Below, piece by piece: positions 1 to 30,858 of a stretch of 64,000 nucleotides of DNA (its first letter is position 1; the number at the start of each line of letters is the position of its first letter). Position numbers and translations under genes: made by a program. The notes beneath the pieces were generated by a model, which saw nothing but the letters and a program-made list of their open reading frames with translations, was not told the DNA's origin and made no database searches. The stretch comes from Candidatus Forterrea multitransposorum CG_2015-17_Forterrea_25_41 (GTDB lineage: Archaea > Iainarchaeota > Iainarchaeia > Iainarchaeales > CSSED10-239), in the NCBI GenBank assembly GCA_009392915.1, contig CP045477.1:704001-768000 (forward strand). The letters are read 5' to 3'.

Positions 1-690
1 ATTTGTCTGTATTGCTTGTTTTGTTTCATCTAAAAGATCAGAAATTAAATCTTCATTTTCAGAAGTTTGTAAAAAAATACTAGATCTTGAAACTTTTTCA
101 AAAAGAATATAATTATTTGTAAGAGAAGTATTAAAATAAACTAAAGACTTCTGAACATCAAGTAAATGACTCATTTCTTTGTTTGTAGGATGTCTTTCTA
201 AAACATCTTCTATTCTTTTTAGTTTTTTATTAATTAATTTTAAAAAATACAAATAGGATTTAGTAGAAGTTAACATTAACCTTAAAGTAAAATAAACTGT
301 ATTAAAAGTATACTTTTTTTCTTTCATTCTTAAGATAGTATTATTATTTTTCTTAAAAGAAATAGTCACAACAATTTCTTTTGTTAAAATAATACCTAAA
401 GGCACAGTATCATATTCTTTATCTGCTCTATAATGAGTTTCTTCTGGTGTTTTAATAATTATAAAAATTAAACCATCATTCTTTAAATCAAATAAAGGAA
501 TTTCTTCTTCATCTGAAAGAGAAAGAATATCTTGTTTTAAATCTTCAAAATCTTTTTTTTTAATTTTTAAAATTTTAGATAATTTTTCAATATCTGCTTC
601 TGTAGGGTTTGATAAATGAATCCAGCTTTCTGATTGTACTTTTTTAAAAGTCTTAAGACCAGTTAGTGTTGGTTTGAAATATTCAATCAT
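1..690 (-). CDS. Partial CDS (N-terminal part, continues past the window start); possible CorA-like Mg2+/Co2+ transporter cytoplasmic domain
   Basis: Reverse-strand ORF with ATG at 688-690, open to position 1. Translation begins MIEYFKPTLTGLKTFKKVQSESWIHLSNPTEADIEKLSKIL...DLLDETKQAIQTN. The W-I-x-L-xxPTeeE...L motif resembles the CorA N-terminal domain. No TM segment has appeared yet. Confidence 0.35.
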   Translation of the reverse strand, partial: MIEYFKPTLTGLKTFKKVQSESWIHLSNPTEADIEKLSKILKIKKKDFEDLKQDILSLSDEEEIPLFDLKNDGLIFIIIKTPEETHYRADKEYDTVPLGIILTKEIVVTISFKKNNNTILRMKEKKYTFNTVYFTLRLMLTSTKSYLYFLKLINKKLKRIEDVLERHPTNKEMSHLLDVQKSLVYFNTSLTNNYILFEKVSRSSIFLQTSENEDLISDLLDETKQAIQTN

Positions 691-783: not shown

Positions 784-1587
784 CTACTCTAAAAGCCAAG
801 GATCATAGATAAATAATTTTTTATTTTCAAAATCAATAAAAACAGGAAGAGAATGGTTTTCTTTAGAAAAATGAGGATAAATATCTTTTATTAAAGCATT
901 AGAAGATATTTTTAAATCTTTATAAGTATATAAAAATTGATTTACTTTTTTTTCTACTTTATAAAGATTATTTCTAATTTCTTTAATATCTGTATCTTTA
1001 ATTAGTTTTTTTTTAAAAGCAATTTCTACATCCATTAGCTTTTCTTGAAATTCATAAAAAATAAAAGATTTCTTATTTATTTTATCAACATATCCAAAAT
1101 GAGCAGGAATTACATTAAAACCAGCTTTTGAAATAACATCTAAAGCTTTAATTTCTGAAGCTCCATGAAAATTATTAAATAAATCAACAGAATCAGCTGT
1201 ATGTTTTACAAAATATTTAGAAGAAGAGGAACCAGATTTAATTTCAAATAATAAATAATCTTGAGTATGAAAAGAATTAAGAGAAGGTTTTTCTAAACTT
1301 TTTAAAGAAACAATTAATGGTTTATTTGAAATTGATTTTAAAGTAATTGAAGTTTCTTTAACTCTTTTACTATTAAAAGATCTTACTTCTTCAAACATTT
1401 TTAAAAAAGAAGGAATTAATTTAGGAATGATTGCAACTTTTGATTTTGCATGTTTAGAATAAACTAATTCCCTTCTATTCCCAATAACTTGTTTTAAAGG
1501 ATTTTTTTTACCAACAGTATCTTTTAAAGACTTATAAACTTTTGAAGAAAATTTAAATTTATTTTTAATATTAAATAATCTAATCAT
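784..1587 (-). CDS. Hypothetical protein, paralogue of 21770..22567 (unknown family; faint kinase-like signatures)
   Basis: Shares blocks with the 21770..22567 product: ALDVISKAGFNVIPAHFGY / ALDIINQAGFNIIKPHFAY, SFIFYEFQ / SFIFYEYQ, LPVFIDFENKKLFIYDP / LPVFIDFENKKLFLFDP. Confidence 0.5.
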   Translation of the reverse strand: MIRLFNIKNKFKFSSKVYKSLKDTVGKKNPLKQVIGNRRELVYSKHAKSKVAIIPKLIPSFLKMFEEVRSFNSKRVKETSITLKSISNKPLIVSLKSLEKPSLNSFHTQDYLLFEIKSGSSSSKYFVKHTADSVDLFNNFHGASEIKALDVISKAGFNVIPAHFGYVDKINKKSFIFYEFQEKLMDVEIAFKKKLIKDTDIKEIRNNLYKVEKKVNQFLYTYKDLKISSNALIKDIYPHFSKENHSLPVFIDFENKKLFIYDPWLLE

Positions 1588-1610: not shown

Positions 1611-2942
1611 TTAAATAACTTCAATTGAGTCTGCTAAAAACTCAATTTGTGAAGAAAAGCTATTTAATTTAGCTCTACCTGAAAGTTTAATTCTTTTTCC
1701 TAAAAGTTCATTTTCAAGTCTATCAAAGATAGTTAATTTATCTTCATCTGATAATTCTTTTTTTAAATCTTCTTTATTAAGAGAGAATAGTTTTTCAGCT
1801 AAATCAGAAAAGAAAACAACTTTTAAAATACCAGTTCCATCATCAATATCAATAGAACCAAATAAATTTGTATTAACATCAACTACTTTAGAACATTTTT
1901 CACAAATGAAATCTCCATTTATAATTTGTACTTTTTCATTACATTCTTTACATTTAAAATATCTTAAGTTATTTCTATTTATAGAAACAATTAAACCTTC
2001 AAGAGAATAATTTCTTCCATCTTCTAAAGATTCAATTTTTCCTTCTTCTAAAGATTTTGTAAGTGTTAAGATATCTGAAAGAGAAGGTATTTTTTTAGAA
2101 GTTTTTGGATTTTTTAAAACTGTTGAAAACCAATTTAAACTAACTTCAAGATCATAAAGACCTTCTTTAACTCTTAAATCACTTAATTTTACTAAATCTC
2201 CTTTTGAAAGATTTTCTAAAATATAATCTGGCCATGGGTCCCATGCTACAAATCTTAAAGACTTAATACCATCTGATACTTCAAAGTTTAAAACACTTTT
2301 ATCTCTATCGTCTTTTCCTTTAAAAGTATTTTTATTATAGATAGCTGTTATTCTTCCAATAACATCAATTAATTGTTCAGTTGCAGAAATATCTGAAACA
2401 TCAACTAAATTTTCTTCCTTTGGAGGAATTAATGGAAAATCTTTAGGATCTAAAAGTATTGAACCTCCTTGTCTTAGAGAAAGTTCTTTTTTATCATTAT
2501 AAGTTGTAATATATGCATCTTTAATTAAAATTTTTGAATTTTTATCTAAATTAAGAGAACTTATAAACTCTGAATGTTCATTCCAAAGATTTAATTTTAT
2601 TTCTCCAGTATCATCAAAAATAAAAAGAGAAGTTATTTTTCCTTTTGAACCATCTTTTTGAGTATAATATCTTGGAGGAGAAATAAATTTTATTCTTGCA
2701 TAAATAGAAGCTGCATCTTGAATATTATCTAAATCTTTTATTTTAACTATTGCAGAAGTTGATTGTTTAATATCTAAGTTAACACCTAGTTGTTTTGCAA
2801 GCATTATACTTGCACCAACTTCTGATAAAAGACCTTGATATTTAGCTTTTATTTTTTCAAGTTCTTCTAAAAGAAAAGGTTCATCTTTACCTGTTTCTTC
2901 CATTACTCTATTAAATATTTGTTTAGCATCGTTTAATTCCAT
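1611..2942 (-). CDS. Replication protein A-like ssDNA-binding protein (multiple OB folds plus C4 zinc ribbon)
   Basis: 443 aa. Repeated OB-fold-like segments and a CxxC...CxxC motif (CKECNEKVQIINGDFICEKCSKV), typical of archaeal RPA. Confidence 0.55.
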   Translation of the reverse strand: MELNDAKQIFNRVMEETGKDEPFLLEELEKIKAKYQGLLSEVGASIMLAKQLGVNLDIKQSTSAIVKIKDLDNIQDAASIYARIKFISPPRYYTQKDGSKGKITSLFIFDDTGEIKLNLWNEHSEFISSLNLDKNSKILIKDAYITTYNDKKELSLRQGGSILLDPKDFPLIPPKEENLVDVSDISATEQLIDVIGRITAIYNKNTFKGKDDRDKSVLNFEVSDGIKSLRFVAWDPWPDYILENLSKGDLVKLSDLRVKEGLYDLEVSLNWFSTVLKNPKTSKKIPSLSDILTLTKSLEEGKIESLEDGRNYSLEGLIVSINRNNLRYFKCKECNEKVQIINGDFICEKCSKVVDVNTNLFGSIDIDDGTGILKVVFFSDLAEKLFSLNKEDLKKELSDEDKLTIFDRLENELLGKRIKLSGRAKLNSFSSQIEFLADSIEVI

Positions 2943-3929: not shown

Positions 3930-5051
3930 ATGGATATAATAAATAAAAACTTAGAAAGTTATTTTAGTCTTGCAAATCAATTAAAGGAAGCGTTTAATAA
4001 TAAAAAATATGCCTTTATTAAATCAGTTTATATTCATGGTTCTTTTGCAAGAGGAGAAATTACTCCTAAAGAAAGTGATATTAACTTAATGATTTTTACT
4101 AAGAAAAAAGAAATTTTAGAAAAAGAAATTGAAACTATCTATAATATTAAACAAAAAATTGAAAGTAATTATTCAATAAAAATAGAATTTAAAATAAATA
4201 ATATTGAGAAAAATAGTCTTAAAAACATTACAACAGATATGTTCTATCCTTATCTTTATGATTTTATATTAAATAGCTTTTATATCTACGGAGAAAGAAT
4301 AGAAGACAAATTATTAAAAATTTTAAAAAATAAAACCTATTTTGAATTTTCATTTGAAACTACAAGTGTTTTTTCAAAAATAAGAATTGATTTTTTAGAA
4401 AATTATTTTAAAGAAAATAAATATAGAATGTACCATAATCTTTACAAATATTCAAGACTTTTAAAACAATTAAAAGTAAATGAAGAAGATATAGAAAAAT
4501 TAGTTTTAAAAATAACAGATTATAAAAATATAGATAAAGAAGAAATATTAAAATACATACTTAAATTTGAAGAACTTCTTGAAAAAGCAGATCTTAAAGA
4601 AATATATGAAAATAATAAAAAATTAAAATTATTTTTAGGATATGCAAAAGGAAGTTTAATCTATAATACTAAAACTAAAAAACTATTAATCCTTAGAGAA
4701 GATAGAAACATCTGTTCTTTTTGGTCAAAATCAGAAAAACAAGTAAAAAATAAAATTACTTTAAAAGATATCAAAAAAGATATTAAAGATAATTGTGGAA
4801 TTGATAAAATAACAATTGTTAAAAACAAAATAGGGGAATGTCATAATTGGTATGAAAAAGAAGACAATAGCTTTAAGAAAATACACACAGAATACTATTA
4901 TGCAACCACAGATTCTCCTGAAATGCCAATAAAAGATAATTGTTATGCATGGATTAAATTAAATGAAATTCAAAAATATATTTCTTCTCCTTGTCTTGGA
5001 TATATTGCAAAAGCATTCTATGAAGATTATATTAAAAAATTAGAAAAATAA
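3930..5051 (+). CDS. Nucleotidyltransferase-domain protein (pol-beta/MNT-like fold) with unknown C-terminal domain
   Basis: HGSFARGEITPKESDINLMIF matches the G[SG]-x9-13-[DE]h[DE]h minimal nucleotidyltransferase motif. 373 aa. Confidence 0.55.
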   Translation: MDIINKNLESYFSLANQLKEAFNNKKYAFIKSVYIHGSFARGEITPKESDINLMIFTKKKEILEKEIETIYNIKQKIESNYSIKIEFKINNIEKNSLKNITTDMFYPYLYDFILNSFYIYGERIEDKLLKILKNKTYFEFSFETTSVFSKIRIDFLENYFKENKYRMYHNLYKYSRLLKQLKVNEEDIEKLVLKITDYKNIDKEEILKYILKFEELLEKADLKEIYENNKKLKLFLGYAKGSLIYNTKTKKLLILREDRNICSFWSKSEKQVKNKITLKDIKKDIKDNCGIDKITIVKNKIGECHNWYEKEDNSFKKIHTEYYYATTDSPEMPIKDNCYAWIKLNEIQKYISSPCLGYIAKAFYEDYIKKLEK

Positions 5052-21473: not shown

Positions 21474-21764
21474 ATGAATATATTATTTTTAGCAACAGAA
21501 GTTACAAAAGAAAGTACAAAAGTATTAACATTAAATCCAATGTATTTAGTGTATGCAGTCATACTTATTATTTTAACTGTAATATTCATTAAAGTTTTTA
21601 AAAATGTAATTGTAAATAGTATAATTGGTGTTGTTGCTTTATTATTTTTAAATTATGTTTTAAACATTAAACTCCCTTTTCTAATAACTTTAATAATAAC
21701 AGTTATTTTTGGTCCTGCAGGTCTTGGTGTTATGCTTGTTTTAAAATTCTTTGGTGTAGTGTAA
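21474..21764 (+). CDS. Small membrane protein (3 TM)
   Basis: 96 aa, hydrophobic. Confidence 0.35.
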   Translation: MNILFLATEVTKESTKVLTLNPMYLVYAVILIILTVIFIKVFKNVIVNSIIGVVALLFLNYVLNIKLPFLITLIITVIFGPAGLGVMLVLKFFGVV

Positions 21765-21769
21765 GATTT

Positions 21770-22567
21770 ATGAATTCAAGATTTATAAATTTTTTTAAAC
21801 TTAATAAAGAAAAAAAAACTACATTACAACCAAAAATAAACTTTAGTTTAAAAAAAGCAATTAAAGGAAAAAAAGAAAAACTAGAAATTACAACTAAAGA
21901 AAATAAATATAAAAAAATAATGTATACTAAAAAAGCAAAAGACTTAATTAAAAATACACCTGGACTTTTAAGAGAGATTAGAGAATATTTAGAAGGTAAA
22001 AAATATAGGCCTAAAGTATACACTGTGTTTTTAAATAAAGAAAAAGTAAGACTTAGAATAGAAGAAATAAATAGACCTTCAAAAAACAGTATTTTAACAA
22101 ATAATTTTTATAAAATAGAAATTAAAGATGGAAAAGAAATCCATAAATTTTTTGTTAAAAAAAAGAAAATTACAACAAATACTCTTTGCTGCATAGGAAC
22201 TAGAGAAATGCAAGCTTTAGATATTATTAATCAAGCAGGATTTAATATTATTAAACCACATTTTGCATATAAAATAAAAGGAAAAGAAAGTTTTATTTTT
22301 TATGAGTATCAAGATAAAATAATTGATGCTGAAAAAGCTTTTCTTGAAAGAAAAATAAACTCTGAAGATGTTAAACAAATTTCAAGAAAATTAAATAATC
22401 TAGAAACAAGACTTAATGATTTTATAAAAGTAAAATATCCTAATGAAAATTTTAAAATCACAGATATTTCTTCAAGCACACAAAAAGAAAAACATGCTCT
22501 CCCTGTTTTTATTGATTTTGAAAACAAGAAACTATTTTTATTTGATCCAATACTTTCAAAAAATTAA
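21770..22567 (+). CDS. Hypothetical protein, paralogue of 784..1587
   Basis: See 784..1587. It has the conserved C-terminal LPVFIDFENKKLF[IL][YF]DP block. Confidence 0.5.
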   Translation: MNSRFINFFKLNKEKKTTLQPKINFSLKKAIKGKKEKLEITTKENKYKKIMYTKKAKDLIKNTPGLLREIREYLEGKKYRPKVYTVFLNKEKVRLRIEEINRPSKNSILTNNFYKIEIKDGKEIHKFFVKKKKITTNTLCCIGTREMQALDIINQAGFNIIKPHFAYKIKGKESFIFYEYQDKIIDAEKAFLERKINSEDVKQISRKLNNLETRLNDFIKVKYPNENFKITDISSSTQKEKHALPVFIDFENKKLFLFDPILSKN

Positions 22568-22615: not shown

Positions 22616-23113
22616 TTATTCATTCCAACCAAACTTATAACCTTGTGAAGTTACAATTTGGTTGTTTTTAATAGAATCAATATACAAGTAATATGTATCA
22701 CTACATTTATTATCATATCCTTCTAAAATAACATATCCTCTTACATCTTTATTCATTTTTGGATCAAGATATGCACCAGGAAAACCTACATTATCACTAG
22801 AAGTTACTTTTAATTCCATTAGGTTTGCAGAAGCATCTTTTAAATATACTTTATATCTTTGATCTTCTCCTTTAGGAACCCAATCAAAAGTAAAATATGC
22901 TTTATCACCTGCAACACAATCTTGATATTGCGCATTTACATTTATAATATAAGCAGGAAGAGGAGCATTATTACCTTGAGCAGTAATTTTAATTGCATCT
23001 CCTGTAGTAGTTAATGTAGTGGTTACAATTATTCCTAAGATTAATCCTAAGATTAAACCAAATAAACCATACACCATTATTTGTTTTTTATTTTTCATTT
23101 TTAAAAACCTCAT
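22616..23113 (-). CDS. Pilin-domain paralogue (secreted/anchored), homologous to 43929..44447 and to the N-terminus of 25654..30858
   Basis: C-terminal CSDTYYLYIDSIKNNQIVTSQGYKFGWNE versus CGDSYYLYIKTTKNNQTVTSQGYRFSWVD. The N-terminus is a hydrophobic anchor, not a clean G|Q-x3-E signal. Confidence 0.5.
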   Translation of the reverse strand: MRFLKMKNKKQIMVYGLFGLILGLILGIIVTTTLTTTGDAIKITAQGNNAPLPAYIINVNAQYQDCVAGDKAYFTFDWVPKGEDQRYKVYLKDASANLMELKVTSSDNVGFPGAYLDPKMNKDVRGYVILEGYDNKCSDTYYLYIDSIKNNQIVTSQGYKFGWNE

Positions 23114-23176
23114 TTTAATTTTTATAAATTATAATTAATTAAAGATATTGTTATAGAAAACCTTTATAAAATAAAC

Positions 23177-24337
23177 TTTTAAAAAAAAAGAAAGAAAACA
23201 AAATTGTGTTGCATAACTCTTTTTAAAAGTATTGTCTAACCTATTTTATTACTAGATAAAGGAGGTTAGACAATATGAATATTAAGAACGAAAAGATTAA
23301 TAAAAGGAACTGGTCAAAGATAAATTATGGAAAAACAAGACAAATCTTGTTTTTACTAGATAAAAACATTATTTTTAGTGAAAATGAAAGACTAGTTTCC
23401 CAAAATAAAAACAAACCAGGAAGACAATTTATATATAGTGATAGAATAATAGAACTATTAATTGATCTTAAAAATTATTTTAAATTTGATTATCGTAAAC
23501 TACAGGCATTCTGCCTGTTGTTTAATAATGTTATAAAAATAAAAACACCTGACTTTACAACTATTTGTAGAAGAATGCACAAATTAGAATTATTTCTAAA
23601 AAATATAAAAACAAAAAAAGAACCAACCTTTATAGCTATAGATGGTTCTGGACTTCAAACTACTAATCGAGGAGAATGGCTTAGATTAATACACAAAAAA
23701 GGAAAAATAAACTTAAGAAATGGATTTGTAAAATTAGTGATTGCAACAGATGTTGCATCTGGAGAAATAACTGGAGTGTATATTTCAGATGATTCTGATT
23801 TTGAAAATAAAAGCTTATCAGATTTATTATACCAAACAATAAATAATCAAAACCAAGAAGTCAAAGGACTTCTTGGAGATGGGGCATACGATTCTTATGA
23901 TAACTTTGATATGCTTGATGATATGGGAATAAAACCAATTATCAAAATCAGAAAGAATGCAATTACAACAGAACCTAATGACGATTATTTAAAAAGAAGA
24001 AGAAAACTTGGAAAAAAGAAAAAAATAAAAAGAATTGAAGTTGCAAAAAAGCAACTTAAAAATGTAGATGACTGGAAACAAAAAAATGAGTATAATAAAA
24101 GGTGGGTTGTTGAATACACGTTTAGTGTATTCAAAAGACTATTCGGACATAGTGTGTACTCTAAAAGAAAGAAATATGTCAAAAATGAAGTAATTTCTAA
24201 AGTAAATTTGTATAATAAATTATTAAATATCAATTAAGAAAAAAATAAAATGAATTAAAAAAAGAAATAAGCTAAAAATATTGTGTAAAACACAATATTT
24301 GTGCAACACAATTTTAAAAAAAAAGAAAGAAAACAAA
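23177..24337. mobile_element. IS-type insertion element with inverted termini (~TTGTGTTGCA, about 23204-23214 / 24301-24311), flanked by identical 26-bp direct repeats
   Basis: The direct repeat TTTTAAAAAAAAAGAAAGAAAACAAA lies at 23177-23202 and 24312-24337, immediately outside the inverted ends. Confidence 0.55.
23275..24237 (+). CDS. DDE transposase (IS4/IS5-like)
   Basis: Blocks IAIDGSGL, LLGDGAYDS and VVEYTFSVFKRLFG give the D, D, E/K pattern of IS4/IS5 transposases. The RBS AAAGGAGG is embedded in a 10-bp-stem hairpin TTGTCTAACC(23233-23242)/GGTTAGACAA(23264-23273). Confidence 0.6.
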   Translation: MNIKNEKINKRNWSKINYGKTRQILFLLDKNIIFSENERLVSQNKNKPGRQFIYSDRIIELLIDLKNYFKFDYRKLQAFCLLFNNVIKIKTPDFTTICRRMHKLELFLKNIKTKKEPTFIAIDGSGLQTTNRGEWLRLIHKKGKINLRNGFVKLVIATDVASGEITGVYISDDSDFENKSLSDLLYQTINNQNQEVKGLLGDGAYDSYDNFDMLDDMGIKPIIKIRKNAITTEPNDDYLKRRRKLGKKKKIKRIEVAKKQLKNVDDWKQKNEYNKRWVVEYTFSVFKRLFGHSVYSKRKKYVKNEVISKVNLYNKLLNIN

Positions 24338-24366: not shown

Positions 24367-25641
24367 ATGCAAACATTTAATTGTGATCTTCATTATCACT
24401 CTCCATATGCAGCCGCTTGTTCTAAAAACATAACCATACCTTTACTTGCACAAGAAGCTAGAAAAAAAGGTTTAGATATTTTAACTACAGCAGACATCCT
24501 ACACCCTGTTTGGCTTAATCACGTTAAAGAAAACTTAATTGAAGAAAATGATTGTTTTAGATACAAAGAAATCATTGAAGGAAAAAAAATATATTTTCTC
24601 TTAGGAACAGAAGTTGAAACTGAAGGAAGAGTACATCATCTTCTTTATTTTAAAAATTTTAAACATATTGAAGAATTTAAAAAAGAAATTAAAAACTTTT
24701 GTCAAGATATGTCTGTTTATGGAAGTGGAAGAACAAAACTTAAAACTACTGCAGAAAATTTATTAAACCTCTGTAAAAAACTAGAAATAATTATTGCTCC
24801 TGCACATGTCTTTACCCCTTATTTTGGAATATTTGCACATTTTAATTCTTTAAAAGAGGCGTATGGTAAAAACTGGGAATATGTTAAGTTTATTGAACTT
24901 GGACTTTCAGCAGATACAAAAATTGCAAACACAATTCCAGAACTTAAAAATATTAAATTTTTTTCATTTTCAGATTCTCATTCTCCTTTAAGTTATAGAA
25001 TAGGGAGAGAATATATTTCTCTTGAGATGGAAAGAGCAAACTTTTCTTCTTTTAAAGATCTACTTGAAAATAAAAAAGGAAAATTACTTTATAATGTAGG
25101 ATATAACCCAAGAGAAGGAAAGTATGGTTTAACTGCTTGCTCTAAATGTTATCAACATTATACTTTAAAACAAGCTATTGAAAATAAATGGAAATGTTCT
25201 GTTTGTAAAAAAAGTATTAAAAAAGGAGTTTTAGAAAGAGCAGAAGAAATGGCAGCCTTACAAGGTAACTCTTCTTTAAAACAAATAACAAAAAGACCAG
25301 ATTATAAATATCTAATGCCTTTAGCTCAAGTTATCCAGATTGCAATTAATCAAAAAAATATTAATCATAAAAAAGTTATTGAAATTTATGATAAGTTTAT
25401 TGAAAAGTATACAGAGATTGAAACTATGCAAAGTATTCCTTTTGAAAAACTAAAAGAGATTGATGAAAATATTGCAAAGTACATTATTTCTTTTAGAAAA
25501 GACTTAGTTGTTTTCCATCCTGGCGGTGGAGGAAATTACGGAACTCCATTTATATTTTTCACAAAAGAAGAAAAAGAAAAAAAAGAAAAAGAAATTAATG
25601 AAAATCTTTATCTAAAAGATCTTCAAAAAAAATTATTTTAA
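24367..25641 (+). CDS. PHP-domain phosphoesterase with C-terminal Zn ribbon (COG1379-like)
   Basis: N-terminal CDLHYHSPYAA (PHP HxH motif). C-terminal CSKCYQHY...CSVCKK. Confidence 0.45.
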   Translation: MQTFNCDLHYHSPYAAACSKNITIPLLAQEARKKGLDILTTADILHPVWLNHVKENLIEENDCFRYKEIIEGKKIYFLLGTEVETEGRVHHLLYFKNFKHIEEFKKEIKNFCQDMSVYGSGRTKLKTTAENLLNLCKKLEIIIAPAHVFTPYFGIFAHFNSLKEAYGKNWEYVKFIELGLSADTKIANTIPELKNIKFFSFSDSHSPLSYRIGREYISLEMERANFSSFKDLLENKKGKLLYNVGYNPREGKYGLTACSKCYQHYTLKQAIENKWKCSVCKKSIKKGVLERAEEMAALQGNSSLKQITKRPDYKYLMPLAQVIQIAINQKNINHKKVIEIYDKFIEKYTEIETMQSIPFEKLKEIDENIAKYIISFRKDLVVFHPGGGGNYGTPFIFFTKEEKEKKEKEINENLYLKDLQKKLF

Positions 25642-25653
25642 AAAATACTAATT

Positions 25654-28600
25654 TTAAACAGGGATTTGTACTCTTACAATTACAACTCCAGAACCACCTG
25701 AAAGACCTCTTGTACCACTACCAGAAGCTTTTCCATCCCCACCATTACCAGTATTTGGAGCACCTGCAGAACCACTATTTTCACGAGAATTACCTCCTGC
25801 AGCATAAATTACATTTGATCCAGTTATGTCATTTGAGGTACCAGGTCCTCCTACACCATATCCAGGAGGAGATGCCCAACAACTACCAGAACCTCCAGAA
25901 CCAGTACCACCTCTATTTTGAGGAGGACAAGCATAATTTGTAGAAGATGATCCTCCAGAACCTCCAGATGCTATTGTTCCATTAAAGAAAGAATACCCAC
26001 CTGCAGTTCCTGCTGTATTATAAGATCCACCAGATCCACCAGATCCCACTACAACATCATAAGTGTCAGCAGAACTGGATACAAGTCCATAATATCTATA
26101 TTGGCCGGCATTTCCACCATTACCATTATAACCACCACCACCACCACCACCGCCGACGACTAAGTATTCTAACATATACATTGGGAAGTCTATATTTATA
26201 GTGTAAGTTCCAGTACCACTTCTAAATTTATGAACACGGTATGCATAACCTCCTGAAATTCCCTCGGTTACTGTTGCTGTACCTGTGTGAGTAGTAATTA
26301 TTTTTCTAACCTTTAAAGTGTAGGTTGCAGAGGTTGCACCTTGTGTAACATTAACAGTAATTGTTTTTAAATTACCATCAGAAATGCTTATAGGGCTTGA
26401 TGCTGATCCAGATGAAACAGTTGAACCATTTACAGTTATTGTTCCAGTACCAGTAGGAGTTACAGTAATACTGTTAGTTGTACTAATTAAATAAAAAATA
26501 TCATTATAATTATATGTATTTGAATTAAAAGCAAATCCAGAAGGATTATTACTTAATTCTAAATTTGAAAGACCAGCAGGAATTGTTACGTTTATACTGC
26601 TTTGACTTCCCCAACAACCGTTTGTAGATCTTGCTCTAAAATAATAGGTGCCATTAGAATTTACTGTTTGAGGAGTGCCTCCTAAAGAGGTACTAGTACC
26701 CATTGATGTAGTTCCTTGGAAATATATAGTTCCACCTGAACCACCAGTTGCAGAAATGGTTGCAAACCCAGGACCACTATTTTGAAGAGATATACTTACA
26801 CTTCCTGGTTGAGAAAGTATAGTTGCAGTAACTGGAACTCTTGTTGTTAAATTACAAGTTCCGCCTGTCACTCCTACATAATAAGTTGTTGTCCAATTTA
26901 GAAGTGGAGTTGTAAAACTATTTCCTGTTGCAATTGGAGAACCACCAGTTGATGAAGTATACCATTCAATAGTTCCGCTTGTTGTAGTTGCACCTAAAGT
27001 TACAGAACCATTACCACATCTTTCTCCAGGAGTAACATTTACTGTTGGTGGAGATGCAATAGTCACTGTTTTTGAAACACAACTTGTTGTATTACAAGTA
27101 CCTGAAAGTCTTGCATAATAAGTTGTAGTTGAGGTTGGACTTACAGTTAAACTTGAAGAAGATCCTAATGAAATTGCAGTCCCACAAGTTCCAGCATACC
27201 ATTGATATGTAGCACCAGTTCCAACAGTTCCACCTATTGCAGTTAAAGTAGTTGGAGATCCAGAACATACACTTGTATTTCCAGTAATTGAGGTTGGAGC
27301 AACTGAAGGTGTATTAAATGAAACAGTTGCACTTCCTTGAGTACCCCAAGTACCAGAAGTAGATCTTGCTCTAAAATAATAAGTTCCAGGACTTGAAACA
27401 ACTTCTGATGTTGAAGCATTCATTGTACTGGTACCATTAGAAGTTGTGCCTTGATAATAAATTGTTCCATTAGCACCACCAGTTGCAGTTAAAGTTGCAT
27501 TAGCATTACAAGTTGCCCCACCACCTAAAACAGTTACTGGATCAGGAGTTATATCTACATTATAATAACCTTGAACTAAATCACTTGAAGTCCATCCTGT
27601 TTTATAAGCAATTGCTTTTAATGGAGTTGGAGAGTTAATTAAAACACTTTCTCCATGATTAATAACATTTACTCCACCTTGAACAGGTGTAGAGTTGTCT
27701 AAAGTATAACTGATTTGTGCTCCAGGCACAGAAGTAATAACTACATTTTGTGCAGTTGAATAAGTTCCAGGTAAAGGACTAAAGGTTGGTGAATTTAGTT
27801 TAAAAGTATAATCTGCTTGAGAAACAGAACTTTCAAGATAACCAGACTTGTAAACTATTGCTTTTAAAGTTTGATTTCTGGTTACAGGGATTGAAGTTCC
27901 GAGATATTGAGTTGAACTTGATGTTGGAGTATCACCATTGGTTGTGTAATAAATACTATAAGGAAGAGGAGTTGTAGTTGATAGATCTACAAAAATATTA
28001 TTATTGTATGTTCCTGAAGGACTTGAGAAAGTAGCAGGATTTGCAATTAATTGAACAGTGAAAGTTTGTGTGGCAACAGGACTGGTTGAATAACCAAAAG
28101 CATAACAAACTGCTTTTAAAGTTGTAGTGGATGTAAAATTAATTGGAGAAGAATAAACTGTTCCATCATCTCTTGTTGGATCAGTTCCATCAGTTGTATA
28201 TCTTATGGTGCTTGAAGGTGTGGAACAACTTAAAGTAACATTAACACTATTTGTGTGGGTTCCACCGTTTGGTGAAAAGGTAGGAGTTGCAGCAGGAGCA
28301 TTTATAGTGTAAACACCAGTTGAAACATCACTTGAAGTCCAACCTGTTTTGTAAGTGATTGCACGTAAAGTAGAGGTTGAAGTGATTGGAACAGTTGACT
28401 CTCCACTATTGATTTGTGTACCAGTTGTCTGTGTTGGAGTTGCTCCATTTATAGTGTATCTGATTTGGGCACCAGCAACAGAAGTTATTGCTACAGATTG
28501 AGAATCTGAATATGCACCAGGAGAAGGACTAAAGGTTGGTGCATTTAATTTGAAGACATAATCTGCTTGAGTGACAGAACTTGCAAGATAACCAGGCTTA

Positions 28601-30858
28601 TAAACAATTGCTTTTAAAGTTTGATTTCTGGTTACAGGGATTGAAGTTCCGAGATATTGAGTTGAACTTGAAGTTGGAGTATCTCCATTTGTTGTATAAT
28701 AAATACTATAAGGAAGAGGAGTTGTGGTTGATAGGTCGACAAAAATATTATTATTGTATGTTCCTGAAGGACTTGAGAAAGTAGCAGGACTTGCAATTAA
28801 TTGAACAGTGAAAGTTTGTGTAGCAACAGGACTGGTTGAATAACCAGAAGCATAACAAACTGCTTTTAAAGTTGTAGTGGATGTAAAATTAATTGGAGAA
28901 GAATAAACTGTTCCATCCTCTCTTGTTGGATCAGTTCCATCAGTTGTATATCTTATGGTGCTTGAAGGGGTTGTACAACTTAAAGTTACATTAACACTAT
29001 TTGTAAAAGTACCACCGTTTGGACTAAAGGCAGGAGTTGCAGCAGGAGCATTAATAGTATAAACACCAGTTGAAACATCACTTGAAGTCCAACCTGTTTT
29101 GTAAGTGATTGCACGTAAAGTAGAGGTTGAAGTGATTGGAACAGTTGACTCTCCACTATTGATTTGTGTACCAGTTGTCTGTGTTGGAGTTGCTCCATTT
29201 ATAGTGTATCTGATTTGGGCACCAGCAACAGAAGTTATTGCTACAGATTGAGAATCTGAATATGCACCAGGAGAAGGACTAAAGGTTGGTGCATTTAATT
29301 TGAAGACATAATCTGCTTGAGTGACAGAACTTGCAAGATAACCAGGCTTATAAACAATTGCTTTTAAAGTTTGATTTCTGGTTACAGGGATTGAAGTTCC
29401 GAGATATTGAGTTGAACTTGAAGTTGGAGTATCTCCATTTGTTGTATAATAAATACTATAAGGAAGAGGAGTTGTAGTTGATAAATCAACAAAAATATTA
29501 TTATTATAAGTTCCTGAAGGAAGAGAAAAGATTGCAATATTAGCAGGAAGAGTAACATTATAATCTGCTTGAGATATTGGACCGGTATTTGAACCTACAG
29601 CTGCCATTGCCTTAATAGTTACAGGAGATGATATGTTAATTGGACTTGAATAAACTGGACTTAAAAGAGTAGGATCAAAACCACTTGTGGTATAATGAAT
29701 AGTTGCACCAGGATTTGAATTACTTAAAGTAATATTTTGTATTGTAGAATAATCTCCTGCAGGAGGATTAAAAATAATAGGATCTAAAGGTACAAAGAAA
29801 CTATAAGTAAAAGTTGAAACTGAACTATCATTATAATTTTCTCTACAAGCAATTGCTTTTATGGTAGAGTCTGCAGAAACATTTATTGGAGAAGTATATT
29901 CTGAAAAGCTACCTGAACAATCAGGAATAGAAGAATCTAAAGTATAATAAATAGTTGAAGAAGAGGTTGCACTTGAAAGAACAACATTAATTGGATCTTC
30001 TAAATTTATAGAACTATCAGGAGTTGCAGTTACTGAAGATACAGTATCATAAGAAACTGTGTAAGTTCCAGAAGCAATTCCAGATTTAACACTGTTATAT
30101 TCAGAATATGCCATAATAGTTGTTCCAGGACTAATTGAAATAGGAAGCCCTAAAGTATAAGGTATACCGCTAGTATAAGGATCACTACCATCTATTGTAT
30201 AATAAACAGAAAAACTTGGATCAGATACATCTAAAGTTATAGTTGATGGAAAAGAAAAATAATTATAAGAACCAGGAACAGGATTAAATAATGGTCTTGA
30301 AATCACTGTTGTTTTAGGACCACTATCAGACCAATTAAAAGAATATCTAGAAGATTTTTTGGATTGATTATTTTTTGAAACTTCTATAGATAAATAATAA
30401 GAATCTCCACAAGAACCATTACCTAAATCAATATCTGAAACAATTAAATTATTTGTAATAATTGGATTTAAGTTATCTTCGGGAATAATATTCCCATCTA
30501 AAATAACAGTGTAATCTCCCTCATTTAAAACATCATTATCTTTATTTTCAATAATTAATTTATAAGTACCCTCTCTCGATAAAGGTTTCCAAGAAAAAGA
30601 TAAAAGCCCAATTTTTCTTAAAGTTCCACCTACATCAATAGTTTCACAATCTAAATAATTAGCTTTAACAGAAGTTATTGTTGGAGGTAAAGGACCATCA
30701 GTTGAAGAAGAAACATCATCAACTTGTTCTGATGCTGAATCTCTTGATTGACCACCTAGAGAAACTAAAATAGTTACAATAATTACAGCAACTAATACAC
30801 CACCACCAATCAATATTAAAGTTTCTAAATTACCTTGACCTTTTTTTGATGGTAGCAT
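25654..30858 (-). CDS. Giant (1734 aa) pilin-signal adhesin-like protein: class III signal plus pilin domain, chitobiase-C-type repeats (tandemly duplicated), Ig-like repeats and a Gly-rich C-terminus
   Basis: N-terminus MLPSKKGQGNLETLILIGGGVLVAVII...GGQSRDSA...CGDSYYLSIEVSKNNQ is homologous to the 43929 pilin. Repeats carry IRYTTDGTDPT motifs. Ig-like repeats carry C..G..TLTA.GG...YQWY...TYYAR..G.C. The tail has GGGGGGGG and further Gly-rich segments. Confidence 0.6.
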   Translation of the reverse strand: MLPSKKGQGNLETLILIGGGVLVAVIIVTILVSLGGQSRDSASEQVDDVSSSTDGPLPPTITSVKANYLDCETIDVGGTLRKIGLLSFSWKPLSREGTYKLIIENKDNDVLNEGDYTVILDGNIIPEDNLNPIITNNLIVSDIDLGNGSCGDSYYLSIEVSKNNQSKKSSRYSFNWSDSGPKTTVISRPLFNPVPGSYNYFSFPSTITLDVSDPSFSVYYTIDGSDPYTSGIPYTLGLPISISPGTTIMAYSEYNSVKSGIASGTYTVSYDTVSSVTATPDSSINLEDPINVVLSSATSSSTIYYTLDSSIPDCSGSFSEYTSPINVSADSTIKAIACRENYNDSSVSTFTYSFFVPLDPIIFNPPAGDYSTIQNITLSNSNPGATIHYTTSGFDPTLLSPVYSSPINISSPVTIKAMAAVGSNTGPISQADYNVTLPANIAIFSLPSGTYNNNIFVDLSTTTPLPYSIYYTTNGDTPTSSSTQYLGTSIPVTRNQTLKAIVYKPGYLASSVTQADYVFKLNAPTFSPSPGAYSDSQSVAITSVAGAQIRYTINGATPTQTTGTQINSGESTVPITSTSTLRAITYKTGWTSSDVSTGVYTINAPAATPAFSPNGGTFTNSVNVTLSCTTPSSTIRYTTDGTDPTREDGTVYSSPINFTSTTTLKAVCYASGYSTSPVATQTFTVQLIASPATFSSPSGTYNNNIFVDLSTTTPLPYSIYYTTNGDTPTSSSTQYLGTSIPVTRNQTLKAIVYKPGYLASSVTQADYVFKLNAPTFSPSPGAYSDSQSVAITSVAGAQIRYTINGATPTQTTGTQINSGESTVPITSTSTLRAITYKTGWTSSDVSTGVYTINAPAATPTFSPNGGTHTNSVNVTLSCSTPSSTIRYTTDGTDPTRDDGTVYSSPINFTSTTTLKAVCYAFGYSTSPVATQTFTVQLIANPATFSSPSGTYNNNIFVDLSTTTPLPYSIYYTTNGDTPTSSSTQYLGTSIPVTRNQTLKAIVYKSGYLESSVSQADYTFKLNSPTFSPLPGTYSTAQNVVITSVPGAQISYTLDNSTPVQGGVNVINHGESVLINSPTPLKAIAYKTGWTSSDLVQGYYNVDITPDPVTVLGGGATCNANATLTATGGANGTIYYQGTTSNGTSTMNASTSEVVSSPGTYYFRARSTSGTWGTQGSATVSFNTPSVAPTSITGNTSVCSGSPTTLTAIGGTVGTGATYQWYAGTCGTAISLGSSSSLTVSPTSTTTYYARLSGTCNTTSCVSKTVTIASPPTVNVTPGERCGNGSVTLGATTTSGTIEWYTSSTGGSPIATGNSFTTPLLNWTTTYYVGVTGGTCNLTTRVPVTATILSQPGSVSISLQNSGPGFATISATGGSGGTIYFQGTTSMGTSTSLGGTPQTVNSNGTYYFRARSTNGCWGSQSSINVTIPAGLSNLELSNNPSGFAFNSNTYNYNDIFYLISTTNSITVTPTGTGTITVNGSTVSSGSASSPISISDGNLKTITVNVTQGATSATYTLKVRKIITTHTGTATVTEGISGGYAYRVHKFRSGTGTYTINIDFPMYMLEYLVVGGGGGGGGYNGNGGNAGQYRYYGLVSSSADTYDVVVGSGGSGGSYNTAGTAGGYSFFNGTIASGGSGGSSSTNYACPPQNRGGTGSGGSGSCWASPPGYGVGGPGTSNDITGSNVIYAAGGNSRENSGSAGAPNTGNGGDGKASGSGTRGLSGGSGVVIVRVQIPV
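27571..29820 (-). repeat. Tandem 750-bp (250-aa) in-frame coding repeats, about 2.3 units near-identical at the DNA level, inside the giant adhesin gene
   Basis: tgaaacatcacttgaagtccaacctgtttt recurs at 28321 and 29071. Hundreds of bp are identical between 27790-28560, 28321-29070 and 29071-29530. Confidence 0.7.

Follow-up and report, generated by a model that had tools for sequence, protein, structure and literature searches.

In the comparison of Scheeff and Bourne, helix F is the last element common to all protein-kinase-like (PKL) structures, where it stabilises the catalytic loop (PMC1261164). Among the described kinases nearest to the proteins reported here, the Kdo kinase WaaP/RfaP (PF06293) runs well beyond its DFG Asp (the 6dfl chain has 241 residues), HopBF1 (NF035942) is a secreted bacterial effector of 176 residues, and the eukaryotic-type kinases CK2alpha', GCN2 and PknB carry GxGxxG, His-Arg before the catalytic Asp, an APE/activation segment and helices F-I. 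We analysed a stretch of 64,000 nucleotides (nt) from Candidatus Forterrea multitransposorum (contig CP045477.1, positions 704,001 to 768,000; hereafter the window), which encodes two proteins of 267 and 265 amino acids (aa), copies A and B. The family to which they belong is very probably PKL at the level of the fold, yet it ends shortly after the DFG Asp. It is hitherto undescribed: the fold is known, but the family is unannotated and shows a distinctive truncation of the universal core.

Copies A and B are paralogues, with a similarity far past chance (BLASTP: 35% identity and 57% positives over 230 aa, E=2e-41). A family hidden Markov model (HMM), run over all six-frame open reading frames (ORFs) of the window, found no other member, so the two-member family proposed in a first-pass annotation of this DNA holds for these 64 kb. 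The 13-mer LPVFIDFENKKLF near the C-terminus is letter for letter the same in both copies, as that annotation had noted, but the block is not invariant beyond them: A orthologues read IDPK[ST]KKLY and some B orthologues read INFE. A profile search against 1.84 billion representatives, clustered at 50% identity, placed about 63 clusters in the family at E<=1e-3 (29 at <=1e-10), all of them single-domain proteins of at most about 310 aa and nearly all from DPANN archaea, which are tiny symbionts. Every named member is called 'hypothetical', and most have been seen on just one or a few metagenomic contigs. The loci are archaeal in context (S8e, L10/L12, MCM, TFIIB, XPF and Cgi121 adjoin), and the window itself, at 25.9% G+C, codes for archaeal RPA, RFC, Cdc48, RtcB, an S-layer protein, an archaeal prepilin peptidase and Endonuclease Q (EndoQ). 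A third homology search, using the alignment, gained little; the 44-sequence alignment was too divergent for locus scans, and genome and metagenome scans reached close relatives only.

We then compared A and B with families already characterised, none of which claims them. Neither the two copies nor 44 relatives reached threshold in Pfam or NCBIfam, and scans of A, B and 35-44 members against Pfam, NCBIfam, PADLOC and PHROGs gave scattered sub-threshold matches only. PF00069 (Pkinase) matched neither copy at E<=10 and none of the 44 members. Single-sequence PDB searches with A and B returned noise, and searching other ORFs for kinase motifs by regular expression gave no useful information.

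Structure prediction and structure search, in contrast, support the kinase-like fold that had been suggested from motifs. AlphaFold2 modelled A from 9 sequences (predicted local distance difference test (pLDDT) 78, predicted TM-score (pTM) 0.77) and B from 46 sequences (pLDDT 89.4, pTM 0.86). The B model scored 9.1 against WaaP, 8.3 against PknB, 7.8 against RIO1, 7.6 against APH and 7.2 against both Bud32 and HopBF1, and Foldseek agreed with the PKL match. The bilobal PKL arrangement is present, with a five-stranded N-lobe sheet and helix C, a hinge, helix E, a catalytic loop and a beta7/beta8 hairpin. At the sequence level, a 44-member profile matched CK2alpha' (E=0.0075) with the alphaC Glu, the HRD Asp and following Asn, and the DWG Asp in exact register; the family consensus 'ikDinaenvFiDlktkklYlfDp' is the stretch aligned to CK2alpha' from its catalytic loop (HRDVKPHN) through DWG. 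A profile built without the A and B clade placed GCN2, PK-1, CK2, a PknB-type kinase, NEK1 and MELK among its top matches. The AlphaFold2 models, Foldseek and the independent sequence profiles thus support the PKL fold well, and no one PKL family stands out as the parent. A chance likeness of some unrelated alpha/beta fold would fit the weak E-values of single sequences to kinases and the TM-scores of about 0.36 to full kinases. We regard this as scarcely credible: two models from different alignments retrieved PKL structures alone, the independent profile alignment puts all four catalytic residues in register, and the low TM-scores are accounted for by a missing half of the C-lobe together with an extra N-terminal region.

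The layout of the two copies and the positions of their key residues are as follows.

784..1587, minus strand: copy A; residues 1-22 form a basic, disordered tail, ~30-77 the conserved N-terminal extension, 78-179 the N-lobe, 187-219 alphaD/alphaE and 235-248 the insertion-bearing catalytic loop; then come beta7/beta8, D262-P263 and the protein end
1204..1206, minus strand: Lys128 of A, the beta3 (VAIK-type) Lys; the only invariant column of the 44-sequence alignment, kept in 60/61 members
1153..1155, minus strand: Glu145 of A, the alphaC Glu; Glu in 51/61 members and Gln in 6, aligned with the CK2 alphaC Glu
883..885, minus strand: Asp235 of A, the catalytic-loop (HRD-type) Asp; 55/61, aligned with the Asp of CK2 HRDVKPHN
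841..879, minus strand: crown-clade catalytic-loop segment of A, residues ~237-249 (motif table)
862-864, minus strand: Lys242 of A, invariant in the crown clade, inside an 8-residue insertion and found only in insertion-bearing members
802..804, minus strand: Asp262 of A, the DFG equivalent, in [FY]DP; 54/61, aligned with the Asp of CK2 DWG
21770..22567, plus strand: copy B, with the architecture of copy A
22157..22159, plus strand: Lys130 of B, the beta3 Lys (alignment with B as first sequence)
22205-22207, plus strand: Glu146 of B (same alignment)
22463-22465, plus strand: Asp232 of B (same alignment)
22544-22546, plus strand: Asp259 of B (same alignment)

This map bears out part of the motif reading in the first-pass annotation. 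Its FFVKK-type beta3 Lys is K128, the conserved Glu some 20 aa further on is the alphaC Glu E145, which gives the Lys-Glu pair expected of PKL proteins, and its hinge-like F-I-F-Y-E block is SFIFYE (174-179), strand beta5 leading into the hinge. Its IDFE at a DFG-like position was misplaced: the CK2 alignment puts the DFG Asp at D262 (D259 in B), after beta8, whereas IDFE sits upstream on beta7 (VFID, 248-251) and reads IDPK in A orthologues. The annotation had also seen no HxD catalytic loop; no His indeed precedes the Asp, but the catalytic Asp exists (D235 in A, D232 in B) and was overlooked because of the absent His and an insertion in the loop. The Gly-rich loop is absent, and a longer beta1-beta2 loop, xNSxxT, with a conserved Thr (T108), stands in its place.

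The most unusual feature of the family is where it stops. In 59/59 members scored, just 5-31 aa remain beyond the DFG Asp (median 11; 5 in A and 6 in B), so that an activation segment and helices F-I do not exist. Every member also has about 100 residues before beta1, including a conserved extension of about 50 residues (a beta-hairpin and two helices; Tyr43 in 52/61, Lys/Arg48 in 56/61, and ENPGL), which the B model places confidently as part of the domain (pLDDT 94-96). We infer that this N-terminal module may complete the truncated C-lobe, standing in for helix F. Literature searches turned up nothing relevant on kinases without helix F or on a kinase family of DPANN archaea. Should the family prove catalytically active, the smallest PKL enzyme unit would have to be redefined as a core of about 190 residues with neither activation segment nor helix F.

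These features separate the family from each candidate relative. WaaP extends well past the point where the roughly 190-residue core of the A/B family ends, the A/B family is archaeal and has a conserved N-terminal extension unique to it, and all family matches to PF06293 fall far below the Pfam gathering score. The HopBF1 model matched 1/44 members at E=0.0015 and neither A nor B; the family has no secretion context, and HopBF1, judged by its length, has no comparable N-terminal extension. Unlike the eukaryotic-type kinases, the family has none of the GxGxxG, His-Arg, APE/activation-segment and helix F-I features. The resemblance to RIO, Bud32 and choline kinase proposed earlier did not survive profile comparison: no RIO (PF01163), Bud32 (TIGR03724) or APH/choline-kinase (PF01636) model matched. 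RIO kinases are marked by a specific N-terminal helix and an STGKEA-type loop, and the APH/choline-kinase group by the HxDxxxxN Brenner motif and an IDxE/IDW that stands at the DFG position, whereas the IDFE of this family does not.

We next consider the catalytic loop, in which A and B depart from their relatives. The loop of most members is the canonical D-[ILV]-x-x-x-N, with Asn at D+5 in at least 90% of members outside the crown clade. In A, B and their orthologues (P0002-11), which form this clade, an 8-residue insertion follows the Asp, and Pro or His replaces the metal-binding Asn; two further members, P0012 and P0013, have an insertion and keep the Asn. In P0004, an A-clade orthologue, the catalytic Asp is itself changed to Asn. 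A neighbour-joining tree makes the A and B clades sisters, which places their duplication at the base of the crown clade. Since the Asn and the Gly-rich loop are absent and P0004 has lost the Asp, catalysis may be weakened or lost in the A/B clade. Judged by the usual K/D/D criterion from sequence, neither A nor B would be a pseudokinase, and reduced or altered catalysis is possible.

A pseudokinase or scaffold in the A/B clade, in which the fold serves as a nucleotide-binding or purely structural partner-binding module with no phosphoryl transfer, is unlikely. All crown-clade members share the loss of the loop Asn and the 8-residue insertion, P0004 carries Asp235->Asn, the Gly-rich loop, helix F and activation segment are absent, and the C-lobe of A is hypervariable (omega, the ratio of nonsynonymous to synonymous divergence, ~0.65), all of which this explanation would accommodate. 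It sits less well with the retention of the beta3 Lys, catalytic Asp and DFG Asp in A, B and 11-12/12 crown members despite 35% identity, with the new invariant Lys in the insertion, or with the strong purifying selection on the N-lobe core.

We favour, with some confidence, a minimal phosphotransferase or ATPase that binds ATP and is probably catalytic; its variable surfaces would recognise a partner protein, plausibly one of replication and repair. As predicted from sequence, ATP would bind between the lobes, held by the K128-E145 pair; D262 would bind Mg2+, and D235 would serve either to transfer the phosphoryl group or to hydrolyse ATP. The missing helix F may have its place taken by the N-terminal extension, and the insertion with its invariant K242 may compensate for the lost metal-binding Asn in the A/B clade. 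The N-terminal extension, alphaD/alphaE and the loop insertion would supply the variable surfaces that recognise a partner protein or a substrate, with the core of the N-lobe kept constant. The tight, conserved linkage described below suggests partners in DNA replication and repair, RPA for A, and a small membrane protein and EndoQ for B; A would hold the older, RPA-linked position, with B as the duplicate from the base of the clade. If active, the family would be a multi-copy, lineage-specific signalling or regulatory protein in DPANN archaea, whose genomes are held to have scant regulatory capacity. It is tied physically to RPA and EndoQ, where no archaeal kinase regulation is established.

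Several observations weigh against this proposal. The family lacks helix F, part of the 'universal core' of PKL proteins (PMC1261164), and its sequence-level links to kinases are each borderline (E ~0.01-0.05). A and B have neither the metal-binding Asn nor the Gly-rich loop, and the Asp of P0004 is gone. Other members lie beside unrelated genes, either directly after one (dUTPase, a GNAT or Cgi121) or near ScpA, and the neighbourhoods of small DPANN genomes are rich in information-processing genes, so adjacency to RPA or EndoQ may not mean functional coupling.

The genes surrounding the two copies are listed below.

1611..2942, minus strand: RPA-like single-stranded DNA-binding protein (Pfam Rep_fac-A_C / OB), encoded on the strand of A and 23 nt upstream of it
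1..690, minus strand: 5' part of a CorA Mg2+ transporter (Pfam, synteny), downstream of A
21474..21764, plus strand: 96-aa membrane protein (TM96), 5 nt upstream of B; the pairing is kept across the B clade
24367..25641, plus strand: Endonuclease Q, 424 aa (PfuEndoQ E=4.6e-80), the ancestral direct downstream neighbour of B
22616..24237, no strand assigned: inserted material between B and EndoQ, absent in locus L006
22616-23113, minus strand: 165-aa ORF, inserted between B and EndoQ
23275-24237, plus strand: insertion sequence (IS) with a DDE transposase, inserted between B and EndoQ and splitting their pairing

The order RPA, A, CorA is kept with A orthologues at 75% and 48% identity, and an RPA gene followed by a family member recurs in loci L001, L003 and L018, with a spacing of 11-25 nt in the crown A clade and L018. 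In L018 the gap after RPA is 13 nt, the RPAs are 58% identical and the kinase-like proteins about 26%; this recurrence indicates that A holds the older, RPA-linked position. In L006, the stop codon of the B orthologue and the start of the next gene overlap; that gene encodes a PHP domain and shares 75% identity with window 24367-25641. Copy B had been assigned to an accessory patch. It does adjoin the IS and the 165-aa ORF, but these are the insertions, and B itself belongs to a conserved syntenic block, TM96, B, EndoQ, which makes it core rather than accessory.

Other genes near the two copies were also recorded. A 373-aa Pol-beta-type nucleotidyltransferase (window 3930-5051, plus strand) lies near copy A, and its ~30%-identical paralogue (Polbeta + NUDIX, L007:1561-2700) lies a few kb from B in close relatives. 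Upstream of DsbA, the window has an M6 peptidase and pilin-like ORFs, whereas L007 has inositol-1-phosphate synthase and a PfkB-like gene, a difference that indicates rearrangement.

At two loci (L021:4454-5729 and L020:4381-5765), Cgi121, a KEOPS subunit, directly precedes a family member, with a convergent XPF and a Hef-type helicase downstream. Cgi121 and the kinase-like gene diverge alike, and fast, between these loci (37% and 31% identity, against 61% for XPF), and the adjacency is limited to P0037 and P0074. It raised the idea of a KEOPS ATPase of the Bud32 type that has diverged strongly, or of a Bud32 paralogue that binds Cgi121, acting in tRNA t6A synthesis or KEOPS DNA repair, which we rejected as very unlikely on NCBIfam evidence, architecture and copy number. 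The 44 members gave no match to NCBIfam TIGR03724 even at E<=1, and Bud32 is not the best structural match. The post-DFG region of Bud32 contributes the interface with Kae1 and the C-terminal tail that t6A synthesis requires, whereas this family has no post-DFG helices and no such tail. It is furthermore multi-copy and fast-evolving, with tandem arrays of 2-4 and a hypervariable A, unlike an essential single-copy KEOPS subunit, and the neighbours in the window lineage are RPA and EndoQ, not Cgi121 or Kae1. Kae1 was in none of the locus gene lists examined, nor among the 30 window ORFs scanned, and the KEOPS literature held nothing relevant on DPANN Bud32.

We then investigated strain-level variability against three close relatives (L009, L023 and L001). 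Copy A is 75-80% identical to their proteins while the flanking genes are 98-100% identical; nucleotide identity is 0.67-0.87 strictly within the A ORF and 0.95-1.00 at its borders. The divergence is concentrated in two segments of the gene.

784..1080, minus strand: hypervariable 3' third of A (alphaD/alphaE, catalytic loop, C-terminus); 61% aa identity, dN 0.27, dS 0.41
1321..1587, minus strand: variable, mosaic 5' part of A (basic tail and N-terminal extension), from allele comparison

Over codons 1-60, the window allele is near L009 and 63% identical to L001; over codons 61-100, L009 equals L001 (100%) and is 72% identical to the window; from codon 196 to the end, L009 and L001 are 96-100% alike and 61-72% identical to the window (a range that includes codons 61-100). 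Such mosaic alleles imply intragenic recombination. Codons 101-195, the core of the N-lobe, show 94-96% identity and an omega of 0.08-0.10, and the variable segments have an omega of 0.6-1.4. The pattern points to a conserved, predicted nucleotide-binding core with diversifying, recombining surfaces that would face a partner. Copy B has an omega of 0.15-0.35; in the same relatives it is 98-100% identical (omega 0.15-0.22), and at a longer distance (L006) it is 56% identical, against 74-80% for MJ0538, TM96 and EndoQ, and so evolves faster than most of its neighbours. The hypervariability of A amid nearly identical surroundings makes it a candidate determinant of conflict or of specificity.

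A sensor or effector kinase driven by conflict, serving antiviral sensing or host-cell manipulation by an episymbiont (compare the minimal effector kinase HopBF1), its variable surfaces following a target that changes fast, does not exclude the minimal phosphotransferase/ATPase that we favour, and we judge it quite unlikely. The divergence of A that ends exactly at the ORF borders, the mosaic alleles, the high omega of the variable segments against 0.1 in the N-lobe, lineage-specific tandem expansions, and one apparent cross-domain member in a code-25 bacterium would all suit such a role; one member weakly matches the HopBF1 model and one the kinase defence protein PD-T4-6. Yet neither a signal peptide or secretion signal nor a defence-island setting turned up, the neighbours being housekeeping genes, and there was no consistent PADLOC or PHROG match. 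The family was absent from IMG/VR with a crown-clade query, B has no such strain-level variability, and omega is not clearly above 1. A viral origin was likewise rejected, as that IMG/VR query returned no relative. The most far-reaching proposal, doubtful at present, is a new PKL class with neither helix F nor the post-DFG half of the C-lobe, its domain completed by the N-terminal module, forming a DPANN set of diversifying, recombining sensor/effector kinases that target or guard central proteins of replication and repair, RPA and EndoQ among them, in conflict with viruses or host cells.

The tandem expansions are head-to-tail arrays of two to four divergent paralogues in other DPANN lineages (L012:5866-8277; L015:846-3731; L030:3-1207). 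The cross-domain member is the distant P0046 (L017:5859-6644, on a Logan SRR28423913 contig of 37.6% G+C), in which TGA is read as sense. It has 11 in-frame TGAs. In the family alignment, Gly predominates in the well-populated columns at these TGAs (27/43, 20/43, 39/43) and Trp never occurs there, a pattern that indicates genetic code 25 (a Gracilibacteria/Absconditabacteria-type bacterium of the candidate phyla radiation, CPR). Its neighbours are bacterial in type (RF-1 domain, RlmN-like, RlmL-like). These observations suggest that transfer has crossed the domains, between DPANN archaea and CPR bacteria, and that the deposited protein was mistranslated with Trp.

Two further sources of variation in A were tried and rejected. 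A diversity-generating retroelement behind the variable 3' end would need a template repeat, and the window held none, just the 69%-identical paralogue B and AT-rich noise. Gene conversion from B to A as a global cause found no enrichment: 34/90 A-specific nucleotide changes match B, against 4/11 in the control. More locally, A codons ~257-269 (window 800-840, minus strand) carry F-E-N...F (IDFENKKLF), a signature of the B clade, in place of the P-K-[ST]...Y of all other A-clade genes, and 32 positions of this ~36-nt tract match B, against 25 that match the A orthologue of L009. It may have arisen by micro gene conversion from B; the reading of the C-terminal block as invariant would then be explained.

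CorA (window 1-690, minus strand) has a dS of 0.16-0.18 to L009 and L023, against 0.04-0.05 for RPA, with a protein 98-99% identical; possibly a tract of recombination with A at its centre reaches into CorA. Two more genes of this region vary between strains. On a 368-kb contig of a relative, most neighbours are 95-100% identical to those of the window, the 165-aa ORF (22616-23113, minus strand) is 89-93% identical, and a 1734-aa repeat-rich surface-type protein (window 25654-30858, minus strand) is ~79% identical to its counterpart, with an omega of ~0.46.
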